64,000 nt of DNA, taken from assembly GCA_903896545.1 (NCBI GenBank), contig CAITYF010000151.1, forward strand, positions 42,272-106,271, given 5' to 3'. Both the position numbers and the translations under genes were made by a program. The notes beneath the pieces were generated by a model that saw only the letters and a program-made list of their open reading frames with translations, had not been told where the DNA came from and did not search any database. Source of the DNA: an uncultured Myxococcales bacterium (lineage in GTDB: Bacteria > Myxococcota_A > UBA9042). Shown here one piece after another: positions 31,711 to 63,995 of the stretch (the first letter of the stretch is position 1; the number at the start of each line of letters is the position of its first letter).

Positions 31711-31937
31711 CGGTGCGCGTCCTGAGGCCGAACTCAAGTCCGACCATCCAAGTCGCAGATTAGGTCTCGGCACGGTCCGTGTCAACGCAAAACTTCCGAG
31801 CCGTGCCAGCTGTGTCACGGTTTTATCAGTTCCGGCGCGGTGTTAAGGTCGGCCGATTGACACTCCACCACTGTCATCCCTATACCGCCGCGCTGTCGCG
31901 CCTGACGCGGCCTCAACGTGTGCGCCTGGAGATCCCG

Positions 31938-44275: not shown

Positions 44276-44315
44276 CCCTAGCCTCTGTTCGCCGCAGTAC
44301 GGCGTGGGGATCCCG

Positions 44316-45368: not shown

Positions 45369-46600
45369 CGGGAGTTCGTCTGACTTGGCCGGGGCGTCAC
45401 GCGCCGGAGCCGCCGCAGAAGCACGGGCTGGAGACGCTGCTCACGGTGCCGGAAACGCGGGCGGACGTCGGCGCGGCGCGGTTGATCGCAGGCCAGGCGA
45501 TCGCGGTGCTGGATCGTCTGCTGCAGGAAGGTCGGGCTGGCCAGGTCGATCTGGTCTATCTGGATCCGCCTTTTGGCGCGGGCGTTTCGTGGCCGCGACG
45601 GCGGGACGTGCAGACTGCGGACGGCCAAGCGACCCACAATGTCGTGGCGTACGAGGACCCGGCCGACGACCTCGTGGACTGGCTGCAGCATCTCGAGACG
45701 GTGCTGGACCGCGTGCACCGGCTTCTGTCGCCGCGGGGTTCCGTGTACGTCCATCTCGACTTTCGTCGCGCGCCGCATGCCCGACTGCTTCTGGACGAGC
45801 GGTTCGGCGCCGACAACCTGCGCAACGAGATCGTCTGGGCATACGGACTCGGCGGTTCGAGCAAGGATCGCTTTGGCCGCAAGCACGACGTGATCCAGTT
45901 CTACGCGAAGGACCCGCGCCACACGTATTTTCAAGCGCCGCTGCAAAAGGCCACGTCGCAGCGCATGAAGGGGCAGTCCAAGCGTGCGACCGACGTCTGG
46001 CAGACGCCGCATCAAGGCCACGACGCGGCGATCACGGGCGCTTGGCCGGATTCGCTGATCGATTTGACACTGTCCAACAGCGATAGCCAACGCACGGGCT
46101 ACCCGACGCAGAAGCCGATCGCGCTGCTGGACCGCATCGTGCACGCGTCGTTGCCGCCGGGCGGCCTGGCGCTGGACCCGATGGCAGGTTCGGGGACGCT
46201 GGGAGTCGCGGCGGTGCGCGTCGGCGGCCACGTGATTCTCGGTGATCGCAGCGAAGTGGCGCTGGACGCGAGTCGCGGCCGCCTGGTGGGCGTGGGCGCG
46301 CGGGTGCAGGTCGACGCGCTGGACGGCGCGCTGGCGACGATCAAACAGCAAGGAACGCACGTTCGACTGGCCGACGGTCAGGCGACGCTCGCTCTACCGG
46401 ACGCACAGGTGGACGCGCTCTCTGCTTGGGGGATCCTCGATGCACAGGGTCGCGCGCTGGCGTGGTGGGACGGCGGCGATCAACGTACGCGTGAGCGCGT
46501 GCCGATGACGCTGCCGCTGCCGCTGCGCGCGGGGAAGCCGGAACGGCTGCTGACGATTGATACTGCGGGAAAGTGGAGTGTCGGGAACGTGGGCGCGTGA
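45365..46600 (+). CDS. Beta-class (N6-adenine or N4-cytosine) DNA methyltransferase with a C-terminal extension
   Basis: Motif IV DLVYLDPPFG precedes TQKP and motif I DPMAGSGTLGVAA, which is the beta-class permutation like CcrM/M.HinfI. About 110 extra C-terminal residues. ATGA overlap with the upstream lipoprotein gene. No restriction endonuclease gene nearby. Confidence 0.8.
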   Translation: MTGVRLTWPGRHAPEPPQKHGLETLLTVPETRADVGAARLIAGQAIAVLDRLLQEGRAGQVDLVYLDPPFGAGVSWPRRRDVQTADGQATHNVVAYEDPADDLVDWLQHLETVLDRVHRLLSPRGSVYVHLDFRRAPHARLLLDERFGADNLRNEIVWAYGLGGSSKDRFGRKHDVIQFYAKDPRHTYFQAPLQKATSQRMKGQSKRATDVWQTPHQGHDAAITGAWPDSLIDLTLSNSDSQRTGYPTQKPIALLDRIVHASLPPGGLALDPMAGSGTLGVAAVRVGGHVILGDRSEVALDASRGRLVGVGARVQVDALDGALATIKQQGTHVRLADGQATLALPDAQVDALSAWGILDAQGRALAWWDGGDQRTRERVPMTLPLPLRAGKPERLLTIDTAGKWSVGNVGA

Positions 46601-50034: not shown

Positions 50035-50209
50035 GTTTCCGCGTCACCGTGTGCAGCACACGCAGATCGGTGCGGAATAGCCGCGACTGAACCGGTGCTT
50101 TGTCCGGCGTGCCGTGCTGGCGGCACTCCCGCGACCCGCGGTGTCACGCGCAGAAGCAGAATCGCGTTCCAAACGAGCAGGAAGTCATTTTCCGTCAGGG
50201 AGTTCTGAG

Positions 50210-52078
50210 ATGACCGCAAGCGCCACCTCTGCGAAGCCACGTGAAGTTCGTGAGTCCGTCATCATCCGTTTTGCCGGTGACTCCGGCGACGGCATCCAGT
50301 TGACCGGCAACCAGTTTTCCGCCGCCTCCGCGCTGGCGGGCAACGACACCGCCACGTTTCCCGACTACCCCGCGGAAATTCGCGCGCCGACGGGTACGCT
50401 CTTCGGCGTTTCCGGCTTTCAGCTCCACTTTGCCAGTCGCGACATCCTGACACCCGGCGATCGCGCCGACGTGTTGGTCGTGATGAGTCCGGCGGCGCTG
50501 GCAGTGAACCGCAAGTGGCTGAAGCCAAACGGCATCCTGATCGCCAACGCCGACTCGTTTCAGGCCAAGAACCTGAAGATGGCGGGCTACACTGAGAACC
50601 CGCTGGAGGACGGCTCGCTGGCCGATTTTCAGCTGTTTCAGCTCGACCTGAGCCGCCTGACGAACGACGCGCTGCAGGGCTACGGCTTGTCGGCCAAGGA
50701 GGTGGAGCGCTGCAAGAACTACTTCGCACTCGGACTGGTGTTTTGGCTGTTTGAGCGCGACGGCGGGCTGGTCGAAGACGAGATTCGCCGCAAATTTGCC
50801 ACGAAGCAGCTGCTGCTCGACGCGAACCTGAAGGTGTTCCACGCAGGCTGGGATTACGGCGAGAATACCGAGCTTTTTGCCTTGCGCTACTCGGTTCCGT
50901 CGGCCAAGGACATCGCACCGGGCACGTACCGCAGCATCGCGGGCAATGAAGCCGTGGCGCTGGGGCTGGTCGCGGCATCGCACCGTGCCGGGTTGGACCT
51001 TTTCTACGGCAGCTACCCGATCACGCCGGCAACGGACATCTTGCACACGTTCGCGGGCTTGAAAGAGTTCGGCGTCCGCACGTTTCAAGCGGAAGACGAG
51101 ATCGCGGCGATCTGCGCGACGATCGGCGCGGCGTACGGCAACCAGCTGGCGGTCACGGGCACGTCCGGTCCGGGCATCGCGTTGAAGTCGGAGGCGATGG
51201 GTCTGGCGGTGATGACGGAACTGCCGCTGGTGATTGTGAACGTGCAACGCGGCGGCCCTTCGACGGGTCTGCCGACCAAGACGGAACAGGCGGATCTGCT
51301 GCAGGTGCTCTATGGCCGCAACGGTGAATCGCCGATGCCGGTTCTGGCCGCCCGCAGTGCGGGGGACGCGTTTGAGTCGGCTTTTGAAGCGGCGCGCATC
51401 GCGGTCAAGTACCGCGTGCCGGTTGTGCTGCTCACTGACGGCGCTATCGCCAACGGCGCCGAGCCTTGGAAGATCCCGGACGTGGACAGCCTGCCGATCA
51501 TCGAACCGAACTTGCTCGATGACGCGGCCAAATTGAACGGCGAGCCGCTGCTGCCCTACCTGCGTGATCCGGAGACGCTGGCGCGGCCGTGGATCAAGCT
51601 CGGTACGCCGGGCCTCGAGCACCGCATCGGCGGTCTGGAGAAGTGGGACAAGACCGGTCACATCGCCTACGACCCGCAGAATCACCACAACATGGTGAAA
51701 GTCCGGCAGGCGAAAGTCGACGGCATCGCTGCGGAAATCCCGCCATCGCACGTGGAAGGTCCAGAAACGGGCGACGTGCTGGTGGTGACCTGGGGCTCGC
51801 CGTATGGCGCGGCGCTGACGGCGGTGCGCGAGCTTCAGGCGCAGGGCCTCTCAGTCGCGCATACGAACCTGCGGTGGCTGAATCCGTTGCCGCCGGATCT
51901 GCACAGGATCCTGCAAAAGTACCGCGTGGTGCTGGTGCCGGAGATCAACAATGGTCAGTTGGTGAAGGTGCTGCGTGCGGCGTACGCGCTCGACATCCAG
52001 CAGTATAACCGGATTTCAGGACTGCCGCTGAGCGTCGCCGAGCTGCGCGACGCGATCGTGAACGTCCTTCCGCACTAG
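50210..52078 (+). CDS. korA: 2-oxoglutarate/2-oxoacid:ferredoxin oxidoreductase alpha subunit (fused gamma-alpha domains)
   Basis: N-terminal gamma-like domain (IIRFAGDSGDGIQLTG) followed by an alpha domain. This is the KorA-type architecture. Start at M33. Confidence 0.85.
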   Translation: MTASATSAKPREVRESVIIRFAGDSGDGIQLTGNQFSAASALAGNDTATFPDYPAEIRAPTGTLFGVSGFQLHFASRDILTPGDRADVLVVMSPAALAVNRKWLKPNGILIANADSFQAKNLKMAGYTENPLEDGSLADFQLFQLDLSRLTNDALQGYGLSAKEVERCKNYFALGLVFWLFERDGGLVEDEIRRKFATKQLLLDANLKVFHAGWDYGENTELFALRYSVPSAKDIAPGTYRSIAGNEAVALGLVAASHRAGLDLFYGSYPITPATDILHTFAGLKEFGVRTFQAEDEIAAICATIGAAYGNQLAVTGTSGPGIALKSEAMGLAVMTELPLVIVNVQRGGPSTGLPTKTEQADLLQVLYGRNGESPMPVLAARSAGDAFESAFEAARIAVKYRVPVVLLTDGAIANGAEPWKIPDVDSLPIIEPNLLDDAAKLNGEPLLPYLRDPETLARPWIKLGTPGLEHRIGGLEKWDKTGHIAYDPQNHHNMVKVRQAKVDGIAAEIPPSHVEGPETGDVLVVTWGSPYGAALTAVRELQAQGLSVAHTNLRWLNPLPPDLHRILQKYRVVLVPEINNGQLVKVLRAAYALDIQQYNRISGLPLSVAELRDAIVNVLPH

Positions 52079-52107
52079 CATCCACTACCTGATGAGGAGC
52101 GGTCGCC

Positions 52108-53127
52108 ATGACTCTCGCCACTGAAAATCTGCTCAAGCCCAAGGACTTCGCCACCGATCAGGACCCACGCTGGTGCCCTGGCTGCGGCGACTACGCGATC
52201 CTCAACTCGGTGCAGCGCGCACTGGCCAAGCAGGGCATTGCGCCGCACAAGATCGCCACCATCGCCGGCATCGGCTGTTCGTCCCGGTTTCCGTATTACA
52301 TGGCGACCTACGGCTTTCACACGATTCATGGGCGCGCACCCGCGGTCGCGACGGGCCTGAAAGTCGCGCGCCCGGACCTGCAGGTCTGGGTCGCAACCGG
52401 TGACGGCGACGCGCTCTCGATTGGCGGCAACCACTTCATTCACGCCGTGCGTCGCAACGTCGACGTGAAGGTGCTGCTGTTCAACAACCGCATTTACGGC
52501 TTGACCAAGGGCCAGTACTCGCCGACGTCAGAACTAGGCAAAAAGACCAAGTCATCGCCGCAGGGCACGGTCGACAACCCGTTTCTGCCGATGTCCCTGG
52601 CGATCGGCGCCGAAGCGAGCTTTATGGGTCGGTCGATTGACGTCGACGGAAAGACGCTGGGCGACGTGTTGGGCGCGGCCGCGGCGCACAAAGGCACGGC
52701 GTTCGTGGAGATCATGCAGAACTGCAACATCTTCAACGACGGCGCCTGGGACCACCTGTCGAGCAAGGAATTCCGCGCCGACATGACGATTCTGCTCGAA
52801 CACGACAAGCCGATGATCTTTGGTGCGAACCGCGACAAGGGCATTCGCCTGAACGGCCTGCGTCCGGAAGTCGTGACGATCGGCGAGAACGGCGTGACGG
52901 AAAGCGATCTCTGGGTGCACGACGCGCACGATGAAGATCCGACCCGCGCGTTCTTGCTGTCGCGCATGGAATACCCCGCGTTTCCCGTGCCGGTCGGCGT
53001 GATTCGCGCGGTGCAGCGCCCGGTGTACGACGCGCTGGTCAACGCGCAGATTGTCGAGCAGCAGGCCGTGAAGAAGGCCAACCTGCAGAGTTTGTTGAAC
53101 GGTCGCAGCACGTGGACCGTCGCCTAA
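52108..53127 (+). CDS. korB: 2-oxoglutarate/2-oxoacid:ferredoxin oxidoreductase beta subunit (TPP-binding)
   Basis: WCPGCGDY N-terminal Cys pair, GDGD TPP-binding motif (VATGDGDALSIGGNHF). Confidence 0.85.
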   Translation: MTLATENLLKPKDFATDQDPRWCPGCGDYAILNSVQRALAKQGIAPHKIATIAGIGCSSRFPYYMATYGFHTIHGRAPAVATGLKVARPDLQVWVATGDGDALSIGGNHFIHAVRRNVDVKVLLFNNRIYGLTKGQYSPTSELGKKTKSSPQGTVDNPFLPMSLAIGAEASFMGRSIDVDGKTLGDVLGAAAAHKGTAFVEIMQNCNIFNDGAWDHLSSKEFRADMTILLEHDKPMIFGANRDKGIRLNGLRPEVVTIGENGVTESDLWVHDAHDEDPTRAFLLSRMEYPAFPVPVGVIRAVQRPVYDALVNAQIVEQQAVKKANLQSLLNGRSTWTVA

Positions 53128-53274
53128 CGGCAAGCACAGCGGAATGTGACACTCGGCTGACACGTTGAGCGTCATGCGCGCACAGAAACGACGCTGCGCC
53201 GCCACAAAGGACTAGCGCGGATTCAATGACGGGCTATGCTGAGACCATGGCGCAAGACCATCCAGGAGGTAAGA

Positions 53275-53625
53275 ATGGAACTCACAGTCGCTACCAAGTT
53301 GGGCTCGGAAGGTAACATCGTCACGGTGGATGGTTCGATTCAAGAGCACCTCGGCAAGAAGCTGGAGAAATTGGAAGTGCGTTGGGGCAAGCCGGTGACG
53401 GCACGCGCGGCGCTGGAAGAAGTCGCCGTGGGTTACGATTGCACGCTGACGATCACGCTGCACGGAACGCCGGAACTCATCTCACACGGCCATGCGGAAA
53501 CGCTGGTAAAAGCGGTAGACACGGCCGTTGAGCGCGTGACCCGCCAGTTTGAAGCCGAAGCCGACAAGCGGACTGGGCGCGAACGTCAGCGCAAGAACGG
53601 CGCGACCAAGCCAGTCATCAGCTAA
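53275..53625 (+). CDS. Putative ribosome hibernation factor / RaiA-YfiA-family protein (short form)
   Basis: Beta-alpha-beta-beta-beta-alpha pattern, with LEKLEVRW and TLTITLHGTPELISHGHAETLVKAVDTAVERVTRQFE resembling HPF. GGAGG ribosome-binding site before ATG 53275. The similarity is judged by eye only. Confidence 0.45.
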   Translation: MELTVATKLGSEGNIVTVDGSIQEHLGKKLEKLEVRWGKPVTARAALEEVAVGYDCTLTITLHGTPELISHGHAETLVKAVDTAVERVTRQFEAEADKRTGRERQRKNGATKPVIS

Positions 53626-53720
53626 GCGATACCTGACAAAAAACCTGGCTGACTGAACTGGCGCGGCCTCCGCGACTCGCATAGCATGGGCGCGTCGCGT
53701 GTGCGCGATGTGGTGACGCC

Positions 53721-55373
53721 ATGCTCAGGTTTGCCCCGATTGTCGGCCTCCTCCTTTTGCTCGCGCAATCCGCGTGCACGAGCTGGGACGAAGGCGTCAA
53801 CGGCAACATCGCAGTCTCCAACGATCCGCGCCAGGTAGCCGACGTCGATCACACCGGCTTGGTCTGGTGGGAAACTCAGGGCTCAACAGGCGCCGACGCG
53901 GGGAACGCCGCAGACACCGTGGACGACGCCGGCGGGTTGGAAGACGTGACGCCGGGCAGCGACGACGTGCTCGCGGTCGAGATCCTCGGTGAAGACTCGG
54001 CCGCCACGGATGCCGAAACGCCTGACGCAAGCGAAGAAGTCGCGCAAAGCGACGCGTTGATTGCGCCCGACGGGCTTCTCGACATCGCCATTCAGGACGT
54101 CGCGGATGCTTGCGCCGGCACCAACCGCCCCATCGGCTGCGCGTGCGAAAACAGCCAATCATGCGCGAGCGGCTTGTGCGTCTACGGAGCGACCGGCTTG
54201 GTGTGCAGCCCAACGTGCAAGAACGTCGTCTGTCCCGCGGGCTGGGCGTGCAGCATGCCTGCGTTGGTGTGCAAGTTGCTGCCAGACAGCGTGAGTTCCG
54301 ACGTGAGTGCAGACGATGCCGGCGCTCTGGACACCGTAGCAGATGGGCAAGCTGTCGATGCCGCGACCGATGCGGTAGTCAGCGACGTCGATCAGCCCGA
54401 TAGTGGCACCGAAGACGCGGGCGTGGGCGACGTGTCGCTGCAGGACGCACCGGATCCGGATGTGGGCGTTGTCGACGCGACTGATTTGGATGCCCAACTA
54501 GACGCAGACGCCGTAACGGATCAAGCGGACGTACAGATTCCCGACGGGCAGCTCGTGGACACGTTTGCGACGGACGCGACAAGCGACAGCGCCGCGGACG
54601 TCGACACGGACGGCTTGACTGGGCTCGACTGGGTGGGCTACCCCGACGCCAGCTTCCCCGACGACGCGGATATCTACGGCGGCGCCATCAACAGCTGCCT
54701 CTCGCTCTACCTGTACCAACAGGAAACCTGCGGCAAGAACAACCCCACCGCTGCGTGCATCGACGACGTGGCGGGCCAAGGTTCGCTGTACGCCAATTAT
54801 CTGTTTGAACCCGTGCGCGCGTGCCAAAACGCGCTCTGCGTGGACCTGTGCGCGACCGCGACCGATGAAACGTGCATGAACCAGTGCATCGGCAAGAACT
54901 GCCCGAACCAATTCCTCTCGTGCGTTTCCAACGACCAGCACGGGGCAGCGGACTGCAAAGCGACGTTCAGTTGCTCGATGGGCTACCCCGGCAAGTTGCT
55001 GACCATCGGCGCAAAGTGCTACGCCAACGGCACGCTGGACGCGCAGTTGCAGGTCGGCGGACTGATTTCCTGCGAGACCAAGCCGAACACGGACAGCTGC
55101 TTCCAGGCGATCGGCGACTGCTACGATCAGGGCGCAGCGGCGACCAACTCGTGCGCACAGACCATCACCTGCACGCAGAACTGCGCGGGCGCGCAGGACT
55201 GTGTGTGGACGTGCTTGGGCTCCGCTTCACCCGCGGGACGCCAAGCGATCGACGCTTTGGGCGATTGCATGGTCACCATCTGCAATCCGAAGTGCAACGG
55301 CGACAAGACGTGCTCTGACGCTTGTTTGGGCACGGACTGCGCGACGCAGTTCGGCGCGTGCATGGCGAATTAA
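53721..55373 (+). CDS. Secreted acidic lipoprotein with a C-terminal Cys-rich (about 40 Cys) domain
   Basis: Signal peptide plus lipobox (LLLLAQSAC). Asp/Ala/Val-rich acidic repeats (DVSADDAGALDTVADGQAVDAATDAVVSDVD). The C-terminal 200 aa is packed with paired cysteines. Confidence 0.6.
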   Translation: MLRFAPIVGLLLLLAQSACTSWDEGVNGNIAVSNDPRQVADVDHTGLVWWETQGSTGADAGNAADTVDDAGGLEDVTPGSDDVLAVEILGEDSAATDAETPDASEEVAQSDALIAPDGLLDIAIQDVADACAGTNRPIGCACENSQSCASGLCVYGATGLVCSPTCKNVVCPAGWACSMPALVCKLLPDSVSSDVSADDAGALDTVADGQAVDAATDAVVSDVDQPDSGTEDAGVGDVSLQDAPDPDVGVVDATDLDAQLDADAVTDQADVQIPDGQLVDTFATDATSDSAADVDTDGLTGLDWVGYPDASFPDDADIYGGAINSCLSLYLYQQETCGKNNPTAACIDDVAGQGSLYANYLFEPVRACQNALCVDLCATATDETCMNQCIGKNCPNQFLSCVSNDQHGAADCKATFSCSMGYPGKLLTIGAKCYANGTLDAQLQVGGLISCETKPNTDSCFQAIGDCYDQGAAATNSCAQTITCTQNCAGAQDCVWTCLGSASPAGRQAIDALGDCMVTICNPKCNGDKTCSDACLGTDCATQFGACMAN

Positions 55374-55499
55374 ACATGCCTGCCAAGACTGGAGATCAAA
55401 TGCTGAACACCGGGTGGGCATGTTTAGGCTGCTAGCTGGGTCGCCAAGCTCGCGTCCCTGTGGGCCGACTCGCGGCGACACAAGATATTTGGCTCCGAG

Positions 55500-55763
55500 T
55501 CAATGCGGGGATGTATAGCGCGCTCGGACCCGCAGAATCTCACGCCAGATCCGCTCGACATCTGCCGGATCCAGCCCCAGCGTCTTGCCACGCGCCTTCA
55601 GCCGCAGCATGACTTCCGCTTCCCGCGCCACGTCCAAGCGTTCCTGACCCGCAGCCTGCTTGAGCGCCCACGCGACGCGCACGCGATGCCCCCGCTCCGC
55701 GAGCAGTTCGAGCAGGCGGTTGTCCGTCTCGTCGATTTCCTGGCGCAGTTCGTCAAGCGTCAC
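55500..55763 (-). CDS. Stand-alone AroQ-class chorismate mutase (87 aa)
   Basis: LDELRQEIDETDNRLLELLAERGHRVRVAWALK...DPADVERIWREIL is the AroQ helical-bundle signature. ATGA overlap with the upstream U32 gene. Confidence 0.7.
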   Translation of the reverse strand: MTLDELRQEIDETDNRLLELLAERGHRVRVAWALKQAAGQERLDVAREAEVMLRLKARGKTLGLDPADVERIWREILRVRARYTSPH

Positions 55764-58342
55764 GGCTGGCCTCCCAAGGTCCGCATCGTACCGGACGTGA
55801 CGCCAAATTGCTCGTGGACCTCAATTTGCCTGAGCAAATCGGCCGGCGTCAAGGTGCCCGCCAGGAGTGCGCTCCACGCTTGCAGCACCTGCCGCGCCTC
55901 ATCCGTGGACTCCCGCACGAACTCGACGCGGAAGCGTTTGACGCCACGCGCCAGCAAGGTCGGCACGACGTTCGCCGCGCTCTGCGCCTGCGCGTTGAAG
56001 ACCGTGTTGCGGCAGCCCACATCGACGATCACCGGATGCTGCTGTCCCACGTGGTCGCGCAGGCTCACCGCGTGCTGCTCGCACGGCCGCCCGCACGTGC
56101 GGAAATCCTGCCCCTGGCTCAGGACGTGGGCGTAGACACAATGCTCGGTGTGGAACGTCGGAATGTGGTGATGCACCGTCACGGTCAGGCGCTCCGCCGG
56201 CACGCGGGTCAGGAGTGCCAGCAGTTGAGTCTCGTCCAGATCGTGCGCCGCGGTCAGCGTGTCCGCGCCCAGCGCGAGCAAGTGGTGCGCGGTCAGCGAG
56301 TTGGTCACGTTCAGGGAGAAATCGCCGTGTACTGCGGGACGATCCGCGTGGGGGAGCTGGGCAAACTGCATCAGGCCGCCCCAGTGACGAACCAGCACGC
56401 CGTCGGGCTTGAGCCGCGCGATGCGCCGATCGTAGCCGTCTTCGCCCGGCTTTTGGACGCGAACTGTGGCGATGGTGACGCGGAGCCCGGCCGCGCGCGC
56501 CTTGTCGACGGCACGCGTCAGCCCGACCAATTCCATCCAGTCCAGCTCCACTTCGGGCAGGCCGGCGGCCAGCACTGCGTCCAACTGTGCGTCATTGCGG
56601 CAGAGCGGGATCAACTGCGGCGTGGTCGGCGGCTGCCACGGCGTCATCTGCCGCCGCGCGACGGCTGCCTCCAGCAGCGCGAGCGCTTGCGGCGCGGGAT
56701 TCACCGCGTGGCGGTGTCGCGCTTCTACCGCAGTCGTCATCTGCTCCACGAGCTGGCGACGCAGCGCCTTCAACGCCGACACCGGCACGTGCAGCCCCGG
56801 TTCCAGATTCGCCAGATCGATCGCGCCCAGTCGGAACGGCGTCCCACCTAACGCCGCGAGCTTGTCGCGCAGCAAGGTGGCATCCAGACCGCCCGCTGAC
56901 GCCGCCTGCAACGGCACCTCGGTGTGGCCAACCACGGTCGCTTGCAGGCCGATCGGTCCCAAGGCCGTCCAGCGAACCGTCAGCGCCGCACCCGCCTGCC
57001 CGGCAACGACGAAATCGAGAGGAATCCGCCCAGTCGGCGCTTGGCGGACGACGTCAGCAGTTTCGCCCGCTAGCTTCGGATCGCCCGTGAGCCACACGCG
57101 GTCGCCCACCTGCACGCGCGCCAAGTCCGGACCCGGCTGGCCAAAACGCAGCAACCATCCATCGGTCGTTGAATCGACGCCGAAAAGCGGCCCACCGGGC
57201 TCATCGGACTCCGGCTTGCCGCGCTCAAATCCAACGCCCATCCCAGCGCGCGGCGCCAAGTCCGGCATCGTTGGCGTCGAAGGCTGCGCCGTCGATTCGA
57301 GGCCAAGCGCAATACCGCCGGTCGCCTGTCGCAACTCCGCACGCACCTGCACGGTGTTGCGCGAAACGCCGGTCACCGCACCCAGCAACAGGCCTCGATG
57401 CTTGGGAAAACGCCCTTCGACCAGCGTTTGATGGTCCGTCCCGCCCAGAAAGCCCTGAGAAAAGCCGCGGCTGTAGGATAGAGCCATCTGCGTCGCGGCT
57501 TCCTCGATACGCGTCACCGTCGGTCGGCCAGCGACGCCGTCCAAACGCTGTCGGTAGGCTTTGACCGCGGTCGCCACGTACTGTGCGTTCTTCTGCCGAC
57601 CTTCGATCTTCAGGCCGTGTACGCCGATCTCCGCCAGCTCAGGCACCGCATCCAAACCAGCCAGATCCAAAGGGCTCAACAGATACGCGACGTCACCCAG
57701 CGGCCGCAGGGTGTCATCCACAACCAGGTCGTACGGCATGCGGCATGACTGCGCGCACTGCCCACGGTTGGCCGAACGCCCACCCCAGGCTTCAGACGTC
57801 AGACACTGCCCAGACCACGACATGCAGAGCGCGCCGTGGATGAACACTTCCAATTCCAGCGGCGTACCGGCGGCGAATTGACGGATCTCTGAGACGGAAA
57901 GCTCGCGCGGCACAACGACGCGGGAGCAGCCCAGACTTGCAGCAAAGGTCGCCGCTTCTGCCGAGCTGATCGTCATCTGCGTCGACGCATGCAGTTCTAA
58001 CGACGGCGCCAGCGCGCGGGCGAGCATCGCAACTGCGGGATCCTGCACGATCAACGCGTCCACGCCAGCGTCGGCAACCGTGCGCAGAATCGTCTCGACC
58101 GCGGGCAACTCGGACTCAAAGATCAGCGTGTTGAGCGTCAGGTAGGCGCGCGCACCCGCAGCGTGAATCGTCGCGACCGTCTGCGCCAGCGTTTCCAGCG
58201 AGAAATTAGCCGTTCGCGCGCGGGCGTTAAAACCGGTGTCGAGACCAAAATAGACCGCGTCTGCACCAGCGGCGAGCGCCGCACGCAAGGCTTCAGCGTC
58301 ACCGGCGGGTGCCAGCAGTTCGGGTAGAGGGCCTGACGGCAT
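55760..58342 (-). CDS. Tandem-duplicated peptidase-U32-family protein (UbiU/UbiV/RlhA/TrhP-like Fe-S enzyme, fused double module)
   Basis: Two U32 cores, each with a 4-Cys cluster: ALCMSWSGQCLTSEAWGGRSANRGQCAQSC and HCVYAHVLSQGQDFRTCGRPCEQHAVSLRDHVGQQHPVIVDVGC. N-terminal LLAPAGDAEALRAALAAGADAVYFGL is the U32 start. Start at M25. Confidence 0.8.
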   Translation of the reverse strand: MPSGPLPELLAPAGDAEALRAALAAGADAVYFGLDTGFNARARTANFSLETLAQTVATIHAAGARAYLTLNTLIFESELPAVETILRTVADAGVDALIVQDPAVAMLARALAPSLELHASTQMTISSAEAATFAASLGCSRVVVPRELSVSEIRQFAAGTPLELEVFIHGALCMSWSGQCLTSEAWGGRSANRGQCAQSCRMPYDLVVDDTLRPLGDVAYLLSPLDLAGLDAVPELAEIGVHGLKIEGRQKNAQYVATAVKAYRQRLDGVAGRPTVTRIEEAATQMALSYSRGFSQGFLGGTDHQTLVEGRFPKHRGLLLGAVTGVSRNTVQVRAELRQATGGIALGLESTAQPSTPTMPDLAPRAGMGVGFERGKPESDEPGGPLFGVDSTTDGWLLRFGQPGPDLARVQVGDRVWLTGDPKLAGETADVVRQAPTGRIPLDFVVAGQAGAALTVRWTALGPIGLQATVVGHTEVPLQAASAGGLDATLLRDKLAALGGTPFRLGAIDLANLEPGLHVPVSALKALRRQLVEQMTTAVEARHRHAVNPAPQALALLEAAVARRQMTPWQPPTTPQLIPLCRNDAQLDAVLAAGLPEVELDWMELVGLTRAVDKARAAGLRVTIATVRVQKPGEDGYDRRIARLKPDGVLVRHWGGLMQFAQLPHADRPAVHGDFSLNVTNSLTAHHLLALGADTLTAAHDLDETQLLALLTRVPAERLTVTVHHHIPTFHTEHCVYAHVLSQGQDFRTCGRPCEQHAVSLRDHVGQQHPVIVDVGCRNTVFNAQAQSAANVVPTLLARGVKRFRVEFVRESTDEARQVLQAWSALLAGTLTPADLLRQIEVHEQFGVTSGTMRTLGGQP

Positions 58343-58426
58343 CAGCGATTTCCGTTGCAAAGGGGGCAGAGACGCCCGCAGAACCGCAAGTCGCGGCGCA
58401 GGCGAGTCAGTCAAGGGCGAATCAAA

Positions 58427-59794
58427 TCAGTCGTCGCCTTCCACAGCATGGGACGCAAGGGGCGTCGTCGGCAAGGCGAGGTCATCCAACTGCGCGTTGA
58501 GACGCTCGTTCTCAGCAAGCGCTTCGGTCAGCTGACGCCGCAGTTCGACCGCCTCGGCTTCTGCCTGGTCGTCCAGTCCGCGCAGCGCAGCTTGGGCAGC
58601 AGCGAGCTCCGCACGCAACGCTTGCACTTCGCCGTCCGCTGCCGGACTCGCGCGGCCACCACGCACTGCGGCAAGCTCCGCGAGAAGCGCCTGTTCCGCC
58701 GCAGCGTGTTGACCTTCCAACAACGCCAACCGCGACGCCAACAGACGCCGCGCGTTCTCGGCTTCCTGATACGCGCCTTGCAGGCGATCGCGCTCGGCTT
58801 CAAGTTCCGCCACGCGCGTCAGCGCGGCTTCCGACTCCTGATGCGCCTCGGACAAGTCCGCCAGCGCTTGACGCCAGAGCGCGGTGCGCGCCTCCACTTC
58901 ATCCCGGGCGGCAGCGAGTTCCTCAGCCAGTGCAGGGTCTGCCACACCCGGCGCTTGTGCGCTCATCGTCGGCGCGGGCGCCGGTTCCAGGTCCGGTTCA
59001 GCCTGCCACTGTGCTTCCGGTTCAGGCTGTGCTTCCGGTTCAGGCTGGGGTTCCGGCTCAGGCTGCGGTTCCGACGCTGGTTCCGCCGCAAATTCCGGTT
59101 CAAGCTCCGGTTCTGGTTGGGGCGCCGGACTTTCAAACGGCAGGTCGTCGTCAAAAACCGGCTCTGCGTCGGGCTCGTCGTCCGACGGCTCAGGCTCATT
59201 GGCCGGCAACCACGCATCAGATGCGGTCTGCACGACCAGCGGCGGGGTCACGCGCACTTCCACGTCGTCGGGCGGATTGTCCAGCGTGAAGCCCGCAGCT
59301 GAGGCTTCCTCGATCGACGACTCCAGGTGCGGCGGCGGCGGTGGAGGAGGAGGAGGAGGCGGCGGCAAGGGCAGCTCAAACGGCGGTGGCGGGATGTCCA
59401 TCGGCGGCGGTGGAATCGAGAACGGCGGTGGCGGAATGCCTTGCTCCTCGTGCACAACCGGCTGTTCCAGCGTCGCGTCGAACGACTCGTCCTCGGCGCG
59501 CTCAAAGCGCAGCTCAAAAGCGCCACAGCGAAACAGCACGCCGTCTTCCAGAATCACAGGCACTTGCGGATCGAGGCGGTCGGTGAAGTAGAACGTGCCG
59601 TTCGAGGAGCCGAGATCCTCCAACACGTACAAACCGTCCTGCCAACCGATGCGCGCGTGCTTGCGCGAGACCGAGTGACCCGCGGTACGGATCTGGCACT
59701 CGGAGGAACGACCGACGAAAATATCGCCAGAACCCTGATTTACTTCAATCACTTGTGGTTGATTGTTGTCATCCAGATAGTGAATAAGTGCCAC
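58427..59794 (-). CDS. FHA-domain protein with poly-proline, acidic PEPEPQ repeats and a C-terminal coiled coil
   Basis: FHA core IEVNQGSGDIFVGRSSECQIRTAGHSVSRKHARIGWQDGLYVLEDLGSSNGTF. P14 run. Start uncertain: GTG 59794 is preferred, because the TTG at 59944 would overlap the divergent NamZ start. Confidence 0.65.
   Translation of the reverse strand: MALIHYLDDNNQPQVIEVNQGSGDIFVGRSSECQIRTAGHSVSRKHARIGWQDGLYVLEDLGSSNGTFYFTDRLDPQVPVILEDGVLFRCGAFELRFERAEDESFDATLEQPVVHEEQGIPPPPFSIPPPPMDIPPPPFELPLPPPPPPPPPPPPHLESSIEEASAAGFTLDNPPDDVEVRVTPPLVVQTASDAWLPANEPEPSDDEPDAEPVFDDDLPFESPAPQPEPELEPEFAAEPASEPQPEPEPQPEPEAQPEPEAQWQAEPDLEPAPAPTMSAQAPGVADPALAEELAAARDEVEARTALWRQALADLSEAHQESEAALTRVAELEAERDRLQGAYQEAENARRLLASRLALLEGQHAAAEQALLAELAAVRGGRASPAADGEVQALRAELAAAQAALRGLDDQAEAEAVELRRQLTEALAENERLNAQLDDLALPTTPLASHAVEGDD
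58991..59116. repeat. Imperfect 18-bp tandem repeats inside the FHA gene (they encode the PEPEPQ/PEPEAQ repeats)
   Basis: cttccggttcagg recurs with 18-bp period at 59014, 59032, 59050 and 59068, then degenerates. A GGN-rich run near 59330-59375 encodes the poly-proline stretch. Confidence 0.5.
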
Positions 59795-59943
59795 GCCCGC
59801 CTCCGTTCGCAAGAGCTTGATTGTCGGAGAGTCTGGCCGCCGTCGCAAGCGGCCACGCAACGACTTTGTCGCAGCAACTGGCGCGGTGGCAAAATCCAGA
59901 TACAGTTCGGACGGGCGGCCAACCAAGGCAAGAGGCAAAGCCA

Positions 59944-61158
59944 ATGAATCGTTTCTATTTTCTCGTCCTTCTGACGGCGCTGCTGCTGCCGAACCTCGCG
60001 CACGCGCTGCCGGTCAAGCCGGGGATTGAGGTGCTCGTCGAGGAGCAGCTCGATCTGGTGCGCGACAAGCGCGTGGGATTGCTAACAAATCCGTCAGCGG
60101 TAGACAGCCAGCTGGTGCCCACGCTGGATCGCCTGCGCAAAGTCGGCGTCGAAGTGACGCAGCTCTACGCGCCGGAACACGGGATATCTGCGGCACTCTC
60201 CAACGGCAAAGGCGGGGACAAGGGCGTCGATCCAGGCTCCGGTCTACCGGTTGAGCCCGTGTGGGGCGCACATTTTTCGCCCAGCAAGGAATCACTGGAG
60301 CGAATCGACGTGCTGGTTTTTGATATTCAGGACCTCGGCTCGCGGACGTACACCTTCGCCACGACCTTGGGCAAGTTGATGATCGCGGCGGGCGCTGCCG
60401 GCAAGCCGGTGATCGTGCTGGACCGGCCGAATCCGGGCGGCGGACTGCTGTTTGAAGGGCCGATCATCGAGAAGAAGCACAAGAGTCTCGTCGGCTGGGG
60501 ACCGCTGCCAGTGACCCACGGCATGACGCTGGGCGAGTTGGCGCGCTTTTACCAGCAAGAGCTCAAGATCAAGGTCGACCTGAAAGTGGTGCCGATGAAA
60601 GGCTGGAAACGCGACATGGTTTGGGAAGACACCGGTCTGCCGTGGGTGCCGTCGTCGCCCGGCATTCCGCACGAGCTGAACGCGCACCTGTACGTTGCGA
60701 CGGGGATGGTCGGCGGCTGTGGCGCACCGGTGAACGAAGGGGGCGGCAATTCCATGCCGTTTGAGCTGATTGGCGCGCCCTACATCGACCCGCAGAAGCT
60801 GGCTGAGTGTCTGCGCGCGGAGAACCTGCCCGGCGTGCTGTTTCGCCCGATGAGCTGGAAGCCCCGGTCAGGCGCGCAGTTTTCGGGCAAACTCGTCCAC
60901 GGCGTGCAGCTCGTGCTGACCAACCCGCGGATCTTCAAGCCGCTGAAAACGGCGCTGGCGATCCTGCACACGCTCTACAAGCTCTTCCCGGAAGAGATGC
61001 AAATCAAAGACATCGGCAAGTTCGGTCGCGTATGGGGCACGGAGCGGGTCCTGCATGCGTTGAAGGACGGCGTCGACTGGCACAAGATTGAAGAGAGTTG
61101 GCAGCCTGAGCTGGCGGCGTTCGCCCTCAAGCGGCAAAAGGTGCTGCTCTACCCTTGA
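59944..61158 (+). CDS. DUF1343 / NamZ-like exo-beta-N-acetylmuramidase family protein, secreted
   Basis: Signal peptide MNRFYFLVLLTALLLPNLAHA. The conserved GLLTNPSAVD...VLVFDIQDLGSRTYTFATTLG...VLDRPNPGGG blocks are characteristic of DUF1343. Confidence 0.7.
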   Translation: MNRFYFLVLLTALLLPNLAHALPVKPGIEVLVEEQLDLVRDKRVGLLTNPSAVDSQLVPTLDRLRKVGVEVTQLYAPEHGISAALSNGKGGDKGVDPGSGLPVEPVWGAHFSPSKESLERIDVLVFDIQDLGSRTYTFATTLGKLMIAAGAAGKPVIVLDRPNPGGGLLFEGPIIEKKHKSLVGWGPLPVTHGMTLGELARFYQQELKIKVDLKVVPMKGWKRDMVWEDTGLPWVPSSPGIPHELNAHLYVATGMVGGCGAPVNEGGGNSMPFELIGAPYIDPQKLAECLRAENLPGVLFRPMSWKPRSGAQFSGKLVHGVQLVLTNPRIFKPLKTALAILHTLYKLFPEEMQIKDIGKFGRVWGTERVLHALKDGVDWHKIEESWQPELAAFALKRQKVLLYP

Positions 61159-61189
61159 TTGCCCCGGCGCACGCGCCAAGTGAGTCGTC

Positions 61190-62545
61190 ATGCAGACCCG
61201 GACACCAACGCTGTTGATCCTCGCGGGATGCGCGCTTGTCACAGCCGCCTGCTGGTGGCTGTCTGGCGTGCTACTGCCTTTGCTTTTGGGCGGCGTGCTG
61301 ACGCTCGTGCTTGCACCGATCGTGGAACGCTGGACGCCGCGGGTTGGCTCACGCGTGCGCGCCATCGCAGTCGCACTCGGAACGGTGGTGCTGATCTTCG
61401 GCATTCTCGCGGCGATCGCCGTGCCGATGATGATCGCCGAAGCACGCCACTGGACCGTCGCAGTCACGGGTGAGGGCGGCTCCGCAATGGCCGGCATCGA
61501 TCACCCCGTCGACTACGAGGACTACGCGGATCCGGACCTGACGCAGTGGCAAGGCGCGGCCCTGGCGGCCCAAGCGCAGGCGAAAGGCGCGCCGGCCGAG
61601 GTCGTTCGCCTGCTGCGTGACCTGCCGCCGCCCGCTCACGATCACACGATCGCGGAAGTGCTGGGCGATCGCGACGGAGATGGGCGCCTGGAACCGGGCT
61701 ACGCACGGCGCTTGCGCCTGCTGCAGCGCGACCGCAACAGCAGCGTCGGTCAGGCCATCGCGTGGCTCGATCGCAACGGTGTTCTCCGCAGCGTACGGAA
61801 CGCCGTGCAACAGACGCTTTCACGCGAACGCATCGCCAAGCTGCTGTCGGGACCACAACTCTCCACCGCGGGCGACGTCGGCATGCGCGTGCTCGGCTCG
61901 GTCGGTGACGTGCTGATGGCGCTGTTGGGCGTCGTCGTCGCCGCCCTGCTCACGCCGATCTACGCGTTCCTCCTGCTTTTGGCACTGCCGCGCTGGCGAT
62001 CGTCGCTGCCCAACTACGTGCCGCAGGAGCAGCGCACGCTGTGGCTGCGCATCGCCAAGCGCATTGTCGACTCCATCTCCGCGTTCGTCCGCGGGCGCGT
62101 CGTCGTGTGCGCGATTGTCGGCGCCATCACCGCGATTGGCTGGGCCGTTCTGGGCGTGCGCCTCGGCATTTTGGCAGGCCTCGCGGTGGGCGCGTTGACG
62201 CTCGTACCGCTTGCCAACGTGCTGGCGCTGGTCCCCGTGATTGTCATGAGCGCCATCGAGTGCGCCACCGGTGCCCACGGTTGGGGCTGGCTGATCGGCG
62301 TGCTGGCTGTCTACGCCGTGGGACAGATCGCTGAGTCGATCCTGAACCCGCTGATCGTCGGTGATGCCGTTCAACTCGACCTGCTGACGATGATCGTCGC
62401 GCTCACGGTGGGCGGTGCGATCGCTGGCTTTGCCGGCCTCGTCCTGGCCGTTCCCGTCGCTGCAACGCTGCGCATTTTGGCCGAAGAACTCTGGCTGCCG
62501 CGTTGGCGTGCGTGGGCCACAGGCTTGGCATCGCATCCGGACTAA
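61190..62545 (+). CDS. AI-2E family transporter (PerM/YdiK, UPF0118) with a large inserted hydrophilic loop
   Basis: Multi-pass membrane protein with the conserved C-terminal half LLGVVVAALLTPIYAFLLL...RGRVVVCAIVGAITAIGWAVLG...NPLIVGDAVQL. The central ~150-aa soluble insert (DYEDYADPDLTQW...) is atypical. Confidence 0.7.
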   Translation: MQTRTPTLLILAGCALVTAACWWLSGVLLPLLLGGVLTLVLAPIVERWTPRVGSRVRAIAVALGTVVLIFGILAAIAVPMMIAEARHWTVAVTGEGGSAMAGIDHPVDYEDYADPDLTQWQGAALAAQAQAKGAPAEVVRLLRDLPPPAHDHTIAEVLGDRDGDGRLEPGYARRLRLLQRDRNSSVGQAIAWLDRNGVLRSVRNAVQQTLSRERIAKLLSGPQLSTAGDVGMRVLGSVGDVLMALLGVVVAALLTPIYAFLLLLALPRWRSSLPNYVPQEQRTLWLRIAKRIVDSISAFVRGRVVVCAIVGAITAIGWAVLGVRLGILAGLAVGALTLVPLANVLALVPVIVMSAIECATGAHGWGWLIGVLAVYAVGQIAESILNPLIVGDAVQLDLLTMIVALTVGGAIAGFAGLVLAVPVAATLRILAEELWLPRWRAWATGLASHPD

Positions 62546-63665: not shown

Positions 63666-63995
63666 CTAACCCGCAATCGCGGACTGAATCAGCGGCGCAA
63701 GCTCACCGCTCTGGTACATGTCCATCGCGATGTCGCAGCCGCCGATGAGCTGACCCTTCACGTACAACTGCGGAATGGTCGGCCACTTGCCGTACATTTT
63801 GATCCCTTCGCGGATGTCCGGGTCTTCCAGCACGTTCACGGACTTGTACTGCGCCGGCGCAATGCCGCACGCCTTCAAGATCTCGGCGGTACGCGCGGAA
63901 AAGCCGCACATCGGGAAGCTCGGCGTACCCTTCATGAAGAGGACGACGGGGTTGGATTGGACAAGCTGGTCGATCTCAGCATTTACATCACGCAT
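63666..63995 (-). CDS. grxD: Monothiol glutaredoxin (Grx4/GrxD type)
   Basis: CGFS active-site motif (FPMCGFSARTAEIL), plus WPTIPQLYVKGQLIGGCDI. Confidence 0.85.
   Translation of the reverse strand: MRDVNAEIDQLVQSNPVVLFMKGTPSFPMCGFSARTAEILKACGIAPAQYKSVNVLEDPDIREGIKMYGKWPTIPQLYVKGQLIGGCDIAMDMYQSGELAPLIQSAIAG

Follow-up and report, generated by a model that had tools for sequence, protein, structure and literature searches.

In Escherichia coli, RlhA (YdcP) is needed for O2-independent, prephenate-dependent formation of 5-hydroxycytidine at C2501 (ho5C2501) in 23S rRNA (Kimura 2017, PMC5727448). RlhA also binds 50S precursors. Prephenate is needed by RlhA as well as by TrhP (PMC5727448, PMC6599085), and it is the oxygen donor for UbiU/UbiV (PMC10990095). 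The evidence for prephenate as the donor for U32 hydroxylases derives from E. coli genetics and isotope labeling, and hydroxylation catalysis in vitro has yet to be reported for any U32 enzyme, E. coli RlhA included. The combination of DUF3656 with Peptidase_U32 is reported to occur in no subfamily other than RlhA (Kimura 2017, PMC5727448). A second C-terminal U32 domain is known in approximately half of the members of this subfamily, and the resulting U32-DUF3656-U32 architecture has been described as RlhA1 plus RlhA2a/b (Kimura 2017, PMC5727448; Pelosi 2019, PMC6747719). Experimental work on RlhA concerns only the short E. coli form, in which C169, C176, C580, and C611 are essential. The modification ho5C2501 also occurs in Deinococcus, a genus with a protein of the RlhA1 subfamily (Kimura 2017, PMC5727448).

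Here, we present an analysis of a locus that encodes a long-form RlhA-type protein together with a chorismate mutase (CM). The locus is part of a window of 64,000 nt, i.e., the whole stretch of DNA that was analyzed and to which all coordinates refer, from an uncultured Myxococcales bacterium (GCA_903896545.1, contig CAITYF010000151.1, positions 42,272-106,271). A first-pass annotation of this DNA had proposed three co-oriented genes on the minus strand, and all three were confirmed at about the same coordinates: a gene for an FHA-domain protein (58427..59794; FHA E=1.8e-14), a long-form RlhA-type gene with the U32-DUF3656-U32 architecture 84 bp downstream (55760..58342), and a gene for a stand-alone AroQ-class CM of 87 aa with a GTG start (55500..55763, stop codon included). 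Profile searches bore out the assignment of the latter two to the AroQ and U32 families, with Pfam matches above the cut-offs to CM_2 (66.2 bits versus a cut-off of 27, E=3e-18) and, in two stretches of the U32 protein, to Peptidase_U32 (E=3e-85). The longest ORF of the U32 gene starts at a TTG at 58414 and gives 884 aa, the length given in the first-pass annotation for a double-U32 fusion. The fusion stands; however, from the ATG at 58342, which is the start used in that annotation itself, the protein has 860 aa, and this is the length of a 100% identical database protein (P0001) and of all homologues.

The U32 and CM genes share a 4-nt stop/start overlap, as had been proposed; however, its motif is GTGA rather than ATGA (55760..55763, minus strand). 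Read from the sequence, the GTG start codon of the CM gene occupies 55763-55761 and the TGA stop codon of the U32 gene 55762-55760. A Shine-Dalgarno-like GGAGG motif (55770..55774, minus strand) is located 6 nt 5' of the CM start within the 3' end of the U32 gene, and the nearest relatives (L089-L092) have GGAGG as well. Based on the overlap and the internal GGAGG, the best explanation is that the CM is translated from the U32 mRNA by stop/start coupling, as far as can be predicted from sequence. A promoter and terminator scan of 55000-60300 revealed no promoter-like site and terminator-like sites only at the level expected by chance, and an Rfam scan of 53000-61500 gave no match. The 84-bp gap between the FHA and U32 genes is devoid of a terminator-like site, and the FHA gene may be co-transcribed with the U32 gene. 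Nevertheless, the proposal that the FHA gene is part of the module did not hold up. An FHA homologue adjoins the U32 gene only at locus L001 and in the nearest MAGs (L089-L092), all of them with a U32 protein that is 82-100% identical, and is absent near the U32 gene from the other ~165 loci searched; the FHA, Cys-rich, and NamZ neighbors are kept only in the nearest MAGs, and we rejected all three as module members.

In contrast, the first-pass expectation that the adjacency of the AroQ and U32 genes is conserved was borne out. Among Myxococcota species genomes, a CM domain is encoded within ±8 kb of the U32 orthologue in 58 of 80, and in ~33 of these 58 genomes it is a small CM directly downstream. 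In Archangium, Cystobacter, and Vitiosangium, the U32 gene is followed by a gene for a fusion of a prephenate dehydrogenase (PDH) to a CM (PDH_N-CM_2), while a convergent PDH-CM fusion is present at ten loci, i.e., in nine Myxococcus species and one genome labeled Corallococcus terminator; M. xanthus DK1622 has this same convergent arrangement. In the metagenome set, a CM domain is found at 35 of 82 loci, and it lies within 700 bp at 21 of the 53 loci that could be assessed (600 bp or more on each flank). Sixteen loci of this set have a fourth arrangement, in which the CM gene is divergent and directly upstream of the U32 gene, giving four CM-U32 arrangements in all among Myxococcota-type loci. 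The 4-nt (-4) overlap, as ATGA or GTGA, is kept in 37 of the 44 directly adjacent co-directional loci. In a second phylum, Bdellovibrionota, three of four loci have a CM of 88-100 aa encoded upstream and overlapping the U32 start. Thus, the linkage recurs in both phyla, with the genes arranged in several ways. Compared with a rough estimate, which is not a computed control, of ~0.5 CM genes expected by chance in that flanking DNA, the pairing is far above chance. Because linkage is lacking in 22 of the 80 related genomes (mostly Corallococcus), in six sampled distant lineages, and in E. coli, the coupling is lineage-specific and dispensable.

With moderate confidence, we suggest that the locus encodes a long-form RlhA hydroxylase that is co-translated with its own local prephenate supply from the coupled AroQ CM. 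According to this model, the 87-aa CM would convert chorismate to prephenate, and the hydroxylase would therefore be produced along with a nearby source of the co-substrate that donates its oxygen, independently of the amino-acid-regulated mutases of the PheA/TyrA type. Prephenate from the coupled CM would then feed the hydroxylase, the substrate of which would be C2501 of 23S rRNA. We speculate that a dedicated supply may have arisen because predatory lineages fed on amino acids make little prephenate or repress its synthesis; a literature search for published aromatic-amino-acid auxotrophy in Bdellovibrionota and Myxococcota gave nothing usable. Overall, the sequence comparisons support the idea, already put forward in the first-pass annotation, that a mini CM coupled to a U32 Fe-S protein echoes the prephenate dependence of this protein family.

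We consider it unlikely that the linked CM is instead the housekeeping mutase of the genome for aromatic amino acid synthesis and lies beside rlhA by co-regulation or inherited synteny. In M. xanthus, Archangium, Cystobacter, and Vitiosangium, the neighboring CM is the C-terminal part of a TyrA-like PDH_N-CM_2 fusion, and in Myxococcus and Archangium this linked fusion resembles a housekeeping enzyme of the tyrosine pathway, which counts against a dedicated supplier. Moreover, among NCBIfam models, the CM of the window is nearest to TyrA/PheA-type CM domains, with all CM equivalogs below cut-off. However, across the five arrangements in two phyla, it is only the CM domain that stays beside the U32 gene, and the stand-alone forms are tied to this gene by the 4-nt overlap at 37 of 44 loci. 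In addition, no other aromatic-pathway (aro) gene was found in the window or among the Pfam-annotated neighbors at the loci from M. xanthus and Bdellovibrionota. Finally, the coupled forms have in common a Trp located three positions N-terminal to the catalytic Lys (W32 in the CM of the window). This Trp is present in 38 of 40 coupled CMs from Myxococcota and in three of three from Bdellovibrionota, while neither the divergent CMs nor the convergent PDH-fused CMs have it, and 16 of 18 CMs encoded further downstream lack it as well.

The U32 protein has an N-terminal Peptidase_U32 domain of the RlhA1 type (57431..58105, minus strand; Pfam aa 104-328 of the 884-aa ORF, corresponding to aa 80-304 of the 860-aa protein), the RlhA-subfamily hallmark DUF3656 (56729..57097, minus strand; PF12392, E=2e-16, 61 bits versus a cut-off of 22.1), and a second, divergent C-terminal Peptidase_U32 domain of the RlhA2 type (55850..56425, minus strand; aa 640-831). 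The C-terminal 301 aa alone matched Peptidase_U32 with 31.2 bits versus a cut-off of 22.4 (E=1.8e-7). In the AF2 model (pLDDT 85, pTM 0.88), the protein folds into two beta/alpha barrels, the second of which comprises aa 576-840, and a beta-rich middle domain. A PDB sequence search with this protein gave no match, and a fold search returned a lone U32 structure (5d88) and otherwise generic TIM barrels. In agreement with the first-pass annotation, each U32 module has a four-Cys site, and 81 of 81 homologues retain all eight Cys residues (C173/180/196/200 and C735/750/754/777 in the 860-aa numbering). The first motif, C173-x6-C180-x15-C196-x3-C200 (57743..57826, minus strand), contains predicted [4Fe-4S] ligands, conforms to the described CX6CX15CX3/4C motif (PMC6747719), and aligns to C169/C176/C192/C196 of E. 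coli RlhA. The second, C735-x14-C750-x3-C754-x22-C777 (56012..56140, minus strand), is a predicted second Fe-S site and its CGRPCE-H stretch resembles C611-RPC614-E-H of E. coli RlhA, albeit in a weak local alignment (z ~3 versus shuffles). Accordingly, each U32 module is predicted to hold a [4Fe-4S] cluster. In one-directional BLASTP searches against the E. coli paralogues, the protein scored 207 bits with RlhA (39% identity over 335 aa, E=8e-61), 174 with TrhP, 134 with UbiU, and 28 with UbiV; the C-terminal module matched none of these paralogues. Based on these sequence features, we assign the 860-aa protein to the RlhA subfamily as one of its long forms.

In comparison to E. coli RlhA, the window protein shares the N-terminal Peptidase_U32 domain together with DUF3656, the identical CX6CX15CX3C motif, and, as a tentative match, a C-terminal Cys cluster with RPCE-H. 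However, E. coli RlhA has 653 aa and only a vestigial C-terminal Cys region in place of the complete second U32 barrel of the window protein; moreover, E. coli rlhA is located between sutR and yncJ without a CM neighbor, and prephenate is provided by PheA/TyrA. The architecture is the same as that of the RlhA1 plus RlhA2a/b long forms. The first-pass view that the double-U32 architecture was uncharacterized is thus superseded by Kimura 2017 and Pelosi 2019; on the other hand, in the literature searched, these two papers included, we found no report of a linkage between genes for a CM and a U32/RlhA protein. The double-U32 architecture being known already, the best reading is that the CM linkage represents a known system in a new operon form. 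As in the prephenate-dependent UbiU-UbiV heterodimer, there are two U32 modules with one four-Cys [4Fe-4S] site each, and the fused long form may be regarded as analogous to a covalently linked UbiU-UbiV heterodimer. It is not orthologous to it, however: the window protein has DUF3656, no UbiT partner is encoded nearby, and the presumed substrate is RNA rather than a quinone. The first-pass annotation had noted a resemblance to such a linked heterodimer; we rejected a UbiU-UbiV fusion by descent because the N-terminal module is closest to RlhA, the C-terminal module has no paralogue match, and the NCBIfam scores for UbiU (182.9 bits versus a cut-off of 440) and UbiV (70.5 versus 275) are below the cut-offs. 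TrhP is likewise a prephenate-dependent U32 Fe-S protein, and B. subtilis TrhP1-TrhP2 are two tandem U32 paralogues encoded in one operon (Sakai 2019, PMC6599085); however, TrhP has its own characteristic C-terminal motif where the window protein has DUF3656, and coupling to a mutase has not been reported for it.

It is improbable, in our estimate, that the long-form protein uses the prephenate from the coupled CM to hydroxylate or otherwise oxidize a target other than C2501, such as a tRNA, a quinone, or another metabolite. Several observations leave room for this idea. Work on RlhA has been confined to the short E. coli protein, function is unknown for most U32 subfamilies, and the second U32 module has strongly diverged. 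In addition, the best NCBIfam equivalog, TrhP, reached 215.3 bits versus a cut-off of 534 and covered only model positions 5-205 of 449; because every NCBIfam equivalog score (TrhP, UbiU, UbiV, and the CM subclasses) is below its cut-off, no equivalog name can be assigned. Against this idea, DUF3656 reportedly marks RlhA-subfamily proteins exclusively, and the N-terminal module is clearly nearest to RlhA. Moreover, Kimura 2017 counts proteins with RlhA1 plus RlhA2 as RlhA homologues, and the Deinococcus modification is found alongside an RlhA1-subfamily protein.

The catalytic residues R11, R28, K39, D48, R51, and E52 of the E. coli enzyme (EcCM) correspond to R7, R24, K35, D44, R47, and E48 in the CM of the window, which is identical to a protein in a public collection (P0409). 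These six residues are kept in 31-33 of 33 linked CMs and are invariant across an 18-sequence alignment. By contrast, S84 and Q88 in helix 3 of EcCM are not kept; the CM of the window has R80 and T84 at these positions, although the alignment of the tail is uncertain. The C-terminal tail of the co-directional CM group is short and Arg-rich. At this position, the closest CM domains of known structure, as aligned, terminate in sequences such as IFKEIFKAAL. Because equivalents of S84/Q88 are absent, full catalytic competence cannot be read from the sequence; however, we did not adopt the interpretation that the CM is inactive, since six of the eight active-site positions of EcCM are kept and the tail alignment is uncertain. 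Rather, the best explanation is that the 87-aa protein is an AroQ chorismate mutase that is predicted to convert chorismate to prephenate. Thus, it shares the CM_2 family and the catalytic Arg/Arg/Lys/Asp/Arg/Glu set with EcCM (1ecm) and the AroA(G) CM domains but differs from them in being a stand-alone 87-aa protein with a Trp ahead of the catalytic Lys and without S84/Q88 equivalents, and its coupled partner gene is that of a U32 hydroxylase instead of DAHP synthase, prephenate dehydratase, or prephenate dehydrogenase.

Mycobacterial AroQ-delta mutases rely on DAHP synthase, and AroA(G) DAHP synthases carry CM-like regulatory domains. By comparison, the small protein could mainly serve the hydroxylase as a subunit that binds prephenate or chorismate, in order to deliver or sense this ligand, and be a poor enzyme without its partner. 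We consider this highly unlikely. The altered helix 3 positions, the Arg-rich C terminus, and the Trp that marks the coupled CMs are compatible with such a role, as is the finding that, among solved structures, the coupled-CM profile is closest to the CM domains of DAHP-synthase fusions (5j6f, 5gmu, 2d8d, and 3nvt; E=4e-14 to 1e-12); also, stop/start coupling favors equimolar synthesis, as for the subunits of a complex. However, the invariance of the six canonical active-site residues speaks for catalysis, and we found no CM-U32 fusion protein among 270 U32 homologues or 59 CM relatives. A more far-reaching speculation, which we regard as doubtful, is that the Trp-bearing CM may be a stoichiometric subunit that docks on the double-U32 RlhA, passes prephenate straight to the Fe-S active site, and is perhaps activated by this contact. 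The two genes would then constitute a self-contained chorismate-in, hydroxylated-RNA-out unit that evolved in Myxococcota and Bdellovibrionota because an amino-acid-rich diet shuts down ordinary prephenate synthesis. Lastly, we dismiss the older annotation of the U32 protein as a collagenase-type peptidase with an unrelated adjoining CM, which survives in public homologue labels ("U32 family peptidase", "putative protease") and in the Pfam description of DUF3656 as "Collagenase", because of the eight invariant Fe-S-type Cys residues, the reassignment of RlhA, TrhP, and UbiU/V to hydroxylation in the literature, and a conserved linkage to a prephenate-making enzyme that makes no sense for a protease.

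Altogether, an operon that pairs a CM with an RlhA-type protein provides independent evolutionary and genomic support for prephenate as a co-substrate of U32 enzymes, and this support reaches beyond Proteobacteria. Such compact two-protein systems could ease biochemical reconstitution and structural work, in which a co-expressed mutase solves the problem of supplying the unstable prephenate; if the CM were indeed a docking subunit, the complex would be a natural system for the first in vitro reconstitution of prephenate-dependent hydroxylation. From an ecological perspective, predatory, amino-acid-fed bacteria may need a private source of prephenate for the continued modification of their ribosomes.

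Chorismate mutase (CM) is the one conserved partner of the RlhA clade to which the U32 protein of the window belongs, because CM and U32 genes are linked in five arrangements in two phyla, while the other neighbors are kept only in the nearest metagenome-assembled genomes (MAGs). Three ORFs lie in the same orientation on the minus strand (55500-59944), and ORF calls and domain matches confirm the three co-oriented genes of the first-pass annotation: an FHA-domain ORF upstream of the U32 gene, the large U32 ORF (Peptidase_U32 in two stretches, E=3e-85; DUF3656, E=2e-16), and an 87-aa CM ORF (55500-55763; CM_2, E=3e-18, 66 bits versus a cut-off of 27). Pfam thus supports both the CM_2 and Peptidase_U32 assignments. 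The U32/CM junction reads ...GGGAGGCCAGCC-GTGA-CG..., with GGAGG 6 nt upstream of the CM start. Because the CM start codon GTG is at 55763-55761 and the U32 stop codon TGA at 55762-55760, the proposed stop/start overlap exists, but as GTGA rather than ATGA. A public protein identical to the U32 product (P0001) has 860 aa and starts at the ATG at 58342; the earlier length of 884 aa corresponds to the maximal ORF from a TTG.

Among the four U32 proteins of E. coli MG1655, RlhA is closest to the N-terminal U32 module (39% identity over 335 aa, E=8e-61), with lower scores for TrhP and UbiU. The C-terminal module has no BLAST match among these four paralogues; by themselves, the C-terminal 301 residues score 31 bits with Peptidase_U32, which is over the gathering score. 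In the AlphaFold2 model (pLDDT 85, pTM 0.88), two beta/alpha barrels (~8-310 and ~576-840) flank a beta-rich domain, and the best PDB fold match is 5d88, the sole solved U32 protein. As previously noted, each module has four cysteines, and none of the eight (C173/C180/C196/C200 and C735/C750/C754/C777) varies across 81 aligned homologues; the first set aligns with C169/C176/C192/C196 of E. coli RlhA. Four-Cys motifs hold [4Fe-4S] clusters in U32 proteins (PMC6747719). Kimura et al. describe the pairing of DUF3656 with Peptidase_U32 as unique to RlhA and find that approximately half of the RlhA1 proteins have another U32 motif, RlhA2a or RlhA2b, at the C-terminus (PMC5727448). Based on the descriptions by Kimura et al. 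and Pelosi et al., the fused double U32 is the known long form of RlhA. We therefore reject a new architecture, since this form is already catalogued; of the suggestion that the fusion is uncharacterized, only the part concerning its biochemistry stands. Descent from a linked UbiU-UbiV pair is also rejected, since the N-terminal module is nearest to RlhA and the protein scores far under the NCBIfam cut-offs for the UbiU and UbiV equivalogs, as well as for TrhP. Taken alone, the U32 gene is a typical member of a known subfamily. Searching 1.84 billion representatives gave 16,367 relatives, and lengths of 800-900 aa are common among the best 150 of these.

The key prediction of the first-pass annotation, that the adjacency is kept in relatives, holds in 58 of 80 genome loci and in a second phylum. 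All of the 80 closest species genomes are Myxococcota-type records, with uncultured 'Myxococcales' MAGs nearest of all (82-87% identity); a home-built HMM served to detect CM domains up to 8 kb to either side of the U32 gene. At ~33 loci (nearest MAGs and MAGs labelled Archangium or Myxococcaceae), a stand-alone small CM lies directly downstream on the same strand. Of the other 15 loci with CM on the strand of the U32 gene, most have a PDH_N-CM_2 (prephenate dehydrogenase-CM) fusion 0.8-3.9 kb downstream; these are Archangium, Cystobacter, and Vitiosangium isolates. A convergent PDH-CM fusion is found at 10 loci (nine Myxococcus spp. and one record labelled Corallococcus terminator) and also in M. 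xanthus DK1622, and the 22 loci with no CM within ±8 kb are mainly from Corallococcus. Pfam supports the fusion calls (8656-9693 of L002, the M. xanthus locus; others at L007, L014, L042, and L095). Because PDH_N precedes CM_2 in the Myxococcus and Archangium fusions, whereas CM precedes PDH in E. coli TyrA, the domain order suggests that the fusion arose independently. In a second set of 80 metagenome contigs with orthologues 54-67% identical, together with the window's own short contig and M. xanthus, a CM domain is present at 35 of 82 loci, and lies within 700 bp of the U32 gene at 21 of the 53 loci having at least 600 bp on each flank. At 16 loci of this set, the CM gene has a fourth arrangement, being divergent and 68-227 bp upstream. 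The exact 4-nt overlap (ATGA or GTGA) is found at 37 of 44 immediately adjacent co-directional loci, window included. By our rough estimate, chance would give well below one CM gene across all flanks examined.

The FHA, Cys-rich, and NamZ genes beside U32 are kept only in the nearest MAGs, and the FHA gene, framed earlier as part of the module, is thus not a conserved member of it. The FHA protein (58427-59794, minus strand) has a long low-complexity middle linker (Pro-rich with Glu/Pro repeats, PPPPF..., EPEPQPEPE...) followed by an Ala/Glu-rich C-terminus, whose weak SMC-family matches suggest a coiled coil. Convergent with the CM gene is a 550-aa Cys-rich, Asp/Ala-rich ORF (53721-55373, plus strand) with a hydrophobic signal-like N-terminus, no match in Pfam or NCBIfam, and conservation in the nearest MAGs only. 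The rest of the 64-kb window has housekeeping functions and no other aromatic-pathway genes. Fe-S-related genes not adjacent to the U32 gene encode an IscS/NifS-like class-V aminotransferase (30076-31299, minus strand), a NUBPL/Mrp-type carrier ATPase (31779-33029, plus strand), and a glutaredoxin with a CGFS-type motif (63666-63995, minus strand). A two-subunit 2-oxoacid:ferredoxin oxidoreductase (50114-53127, plus strand; POR/POR_N and TPP_enzyme_C), followed by an S30AE-family ribosome hibernation factor (53236-53625, plus strand), hints at a low-oxygen lifestyle of this freshwater Myxococcota lineage. An RlmD/TrmA-like RNA uracil-5 methyltransferase with a TRAM domain (42974-44377, minus strand) and a stand-alone N6/N4 DNA methylase (45365-46600, plus strand) are unrelated to the CM-U32 finding.

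Among representatives 35-48% identical to the window U32 protein, three of four Bdellovibrionota loci have a CM_2 gene (88-100 aa) directly upstream on the same strand, overlapping the U32 start by 4-14 nt; the fourth has no CM neighbor. The named matches are Bdellovibrionaceae and Pseudobdellovibrio, and, from agreement in the length of the longest contig, we infer that six further Bdellovibrionota U32 proteins are each encoded on the same contig as a CM match. No CM neighbor was found in six other distant lineages sampled, including Fibrobacter, and E. coli rlhA is flanked by sutR and yncJ. At locus L087 (3589-4926 and 2527-3579), a long-form RlhA gene (P0129, 48% identity) is divergent from cydAB, encoding cytochrome bd oxidase, another hint of a low-oxygen context.

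In an alignment of the window CM, 32 linked CM domains, and the E. coli PheA and TyrA CM domains, R11, R28, K39, D48, R51, and E52 of E. coli CM correspond to R7, R24, K35, D44, R47, and E48. Equivalents of S84 and Q88 are missing, and the C-terminus is a short Arg-rich tail; we did not adopt the reading that CM is inactive for lack of these helix-3 residues. Among solved structures, the profile is nearest to T. thermophilus CM and to the CM domains that AroA(G)-type DAHP synthases carry. A Trp three residues N-terminal of the catalytic Lys (codon 32, 55668-55670; same column in loci L005-L175) is shared by 38 of 40 Myxococcota CMs coupled downstream and by all 3 Bdellovibrionota CMs coupled upstream, but occurs in only 2 of 18 CMs further downstream, 0 of 19 divergent CMs, and 0 of 12 convergent PDH-fused CMs; PheA and TyrA of E. 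coli have Gly here. From this distribution, the Trp may be a partner-contact signature. The same pattern is drawn on for the unlikely alternative that the partner activates the CM-like protein, which would serve as a subunit for binding or delivery; however, no CM-U32 fusion was found among 270 U32 homologues or 59 CM relatives. A less likely reading than a dedicated supplier, that the linked CM is just the housekeeping enzyme, has support from the PDH-CM fusions of Myxococcus and Archangium. In a further alternative, the hydroxylase could act on a different substrate.

The best-supported reading is that CM would be co-translated with the hydroxylase and would convert chorismate to prephenate, the co-substrate of the hydroxylase, the long-form RlhA probably targeting 23S rRNA C2501. 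We know of no prephenate sources in E. coli other than PheA/TyrA-type enzymes, and the coupled CM would make the supply independent of these. Myxococcota and Bdellovibrionota are for the most part predators that live on amino acids; we infer that the usual prephenate synthesis is low or repressed in these phyla. Direct catalysis in vitro has not yet been demonstrated for any U32 protein. As the first-pass annotation stated, RlhA- and TrhP-dependent hydroxylations require prephenate (PMC5727448, PMC6599085). 18O labelling identified prephenate as the oxygen donor for UbiU/V (PMC10990095).

In the portions of the literature available to our search, no report described a CM-U32 gene neighborhood, and those naming both chorismate mutase and RlhA concern E. 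coli genetics. Altogether, the conserved CM-RlhA unit, in many cases with translational coupling, seems to be a so far unreported variant of the prephenate-dependent hydroxylase system. The unit supports rather than overturns the existing biochemistry and provides a practical natural system in which to attempt reconstitution.
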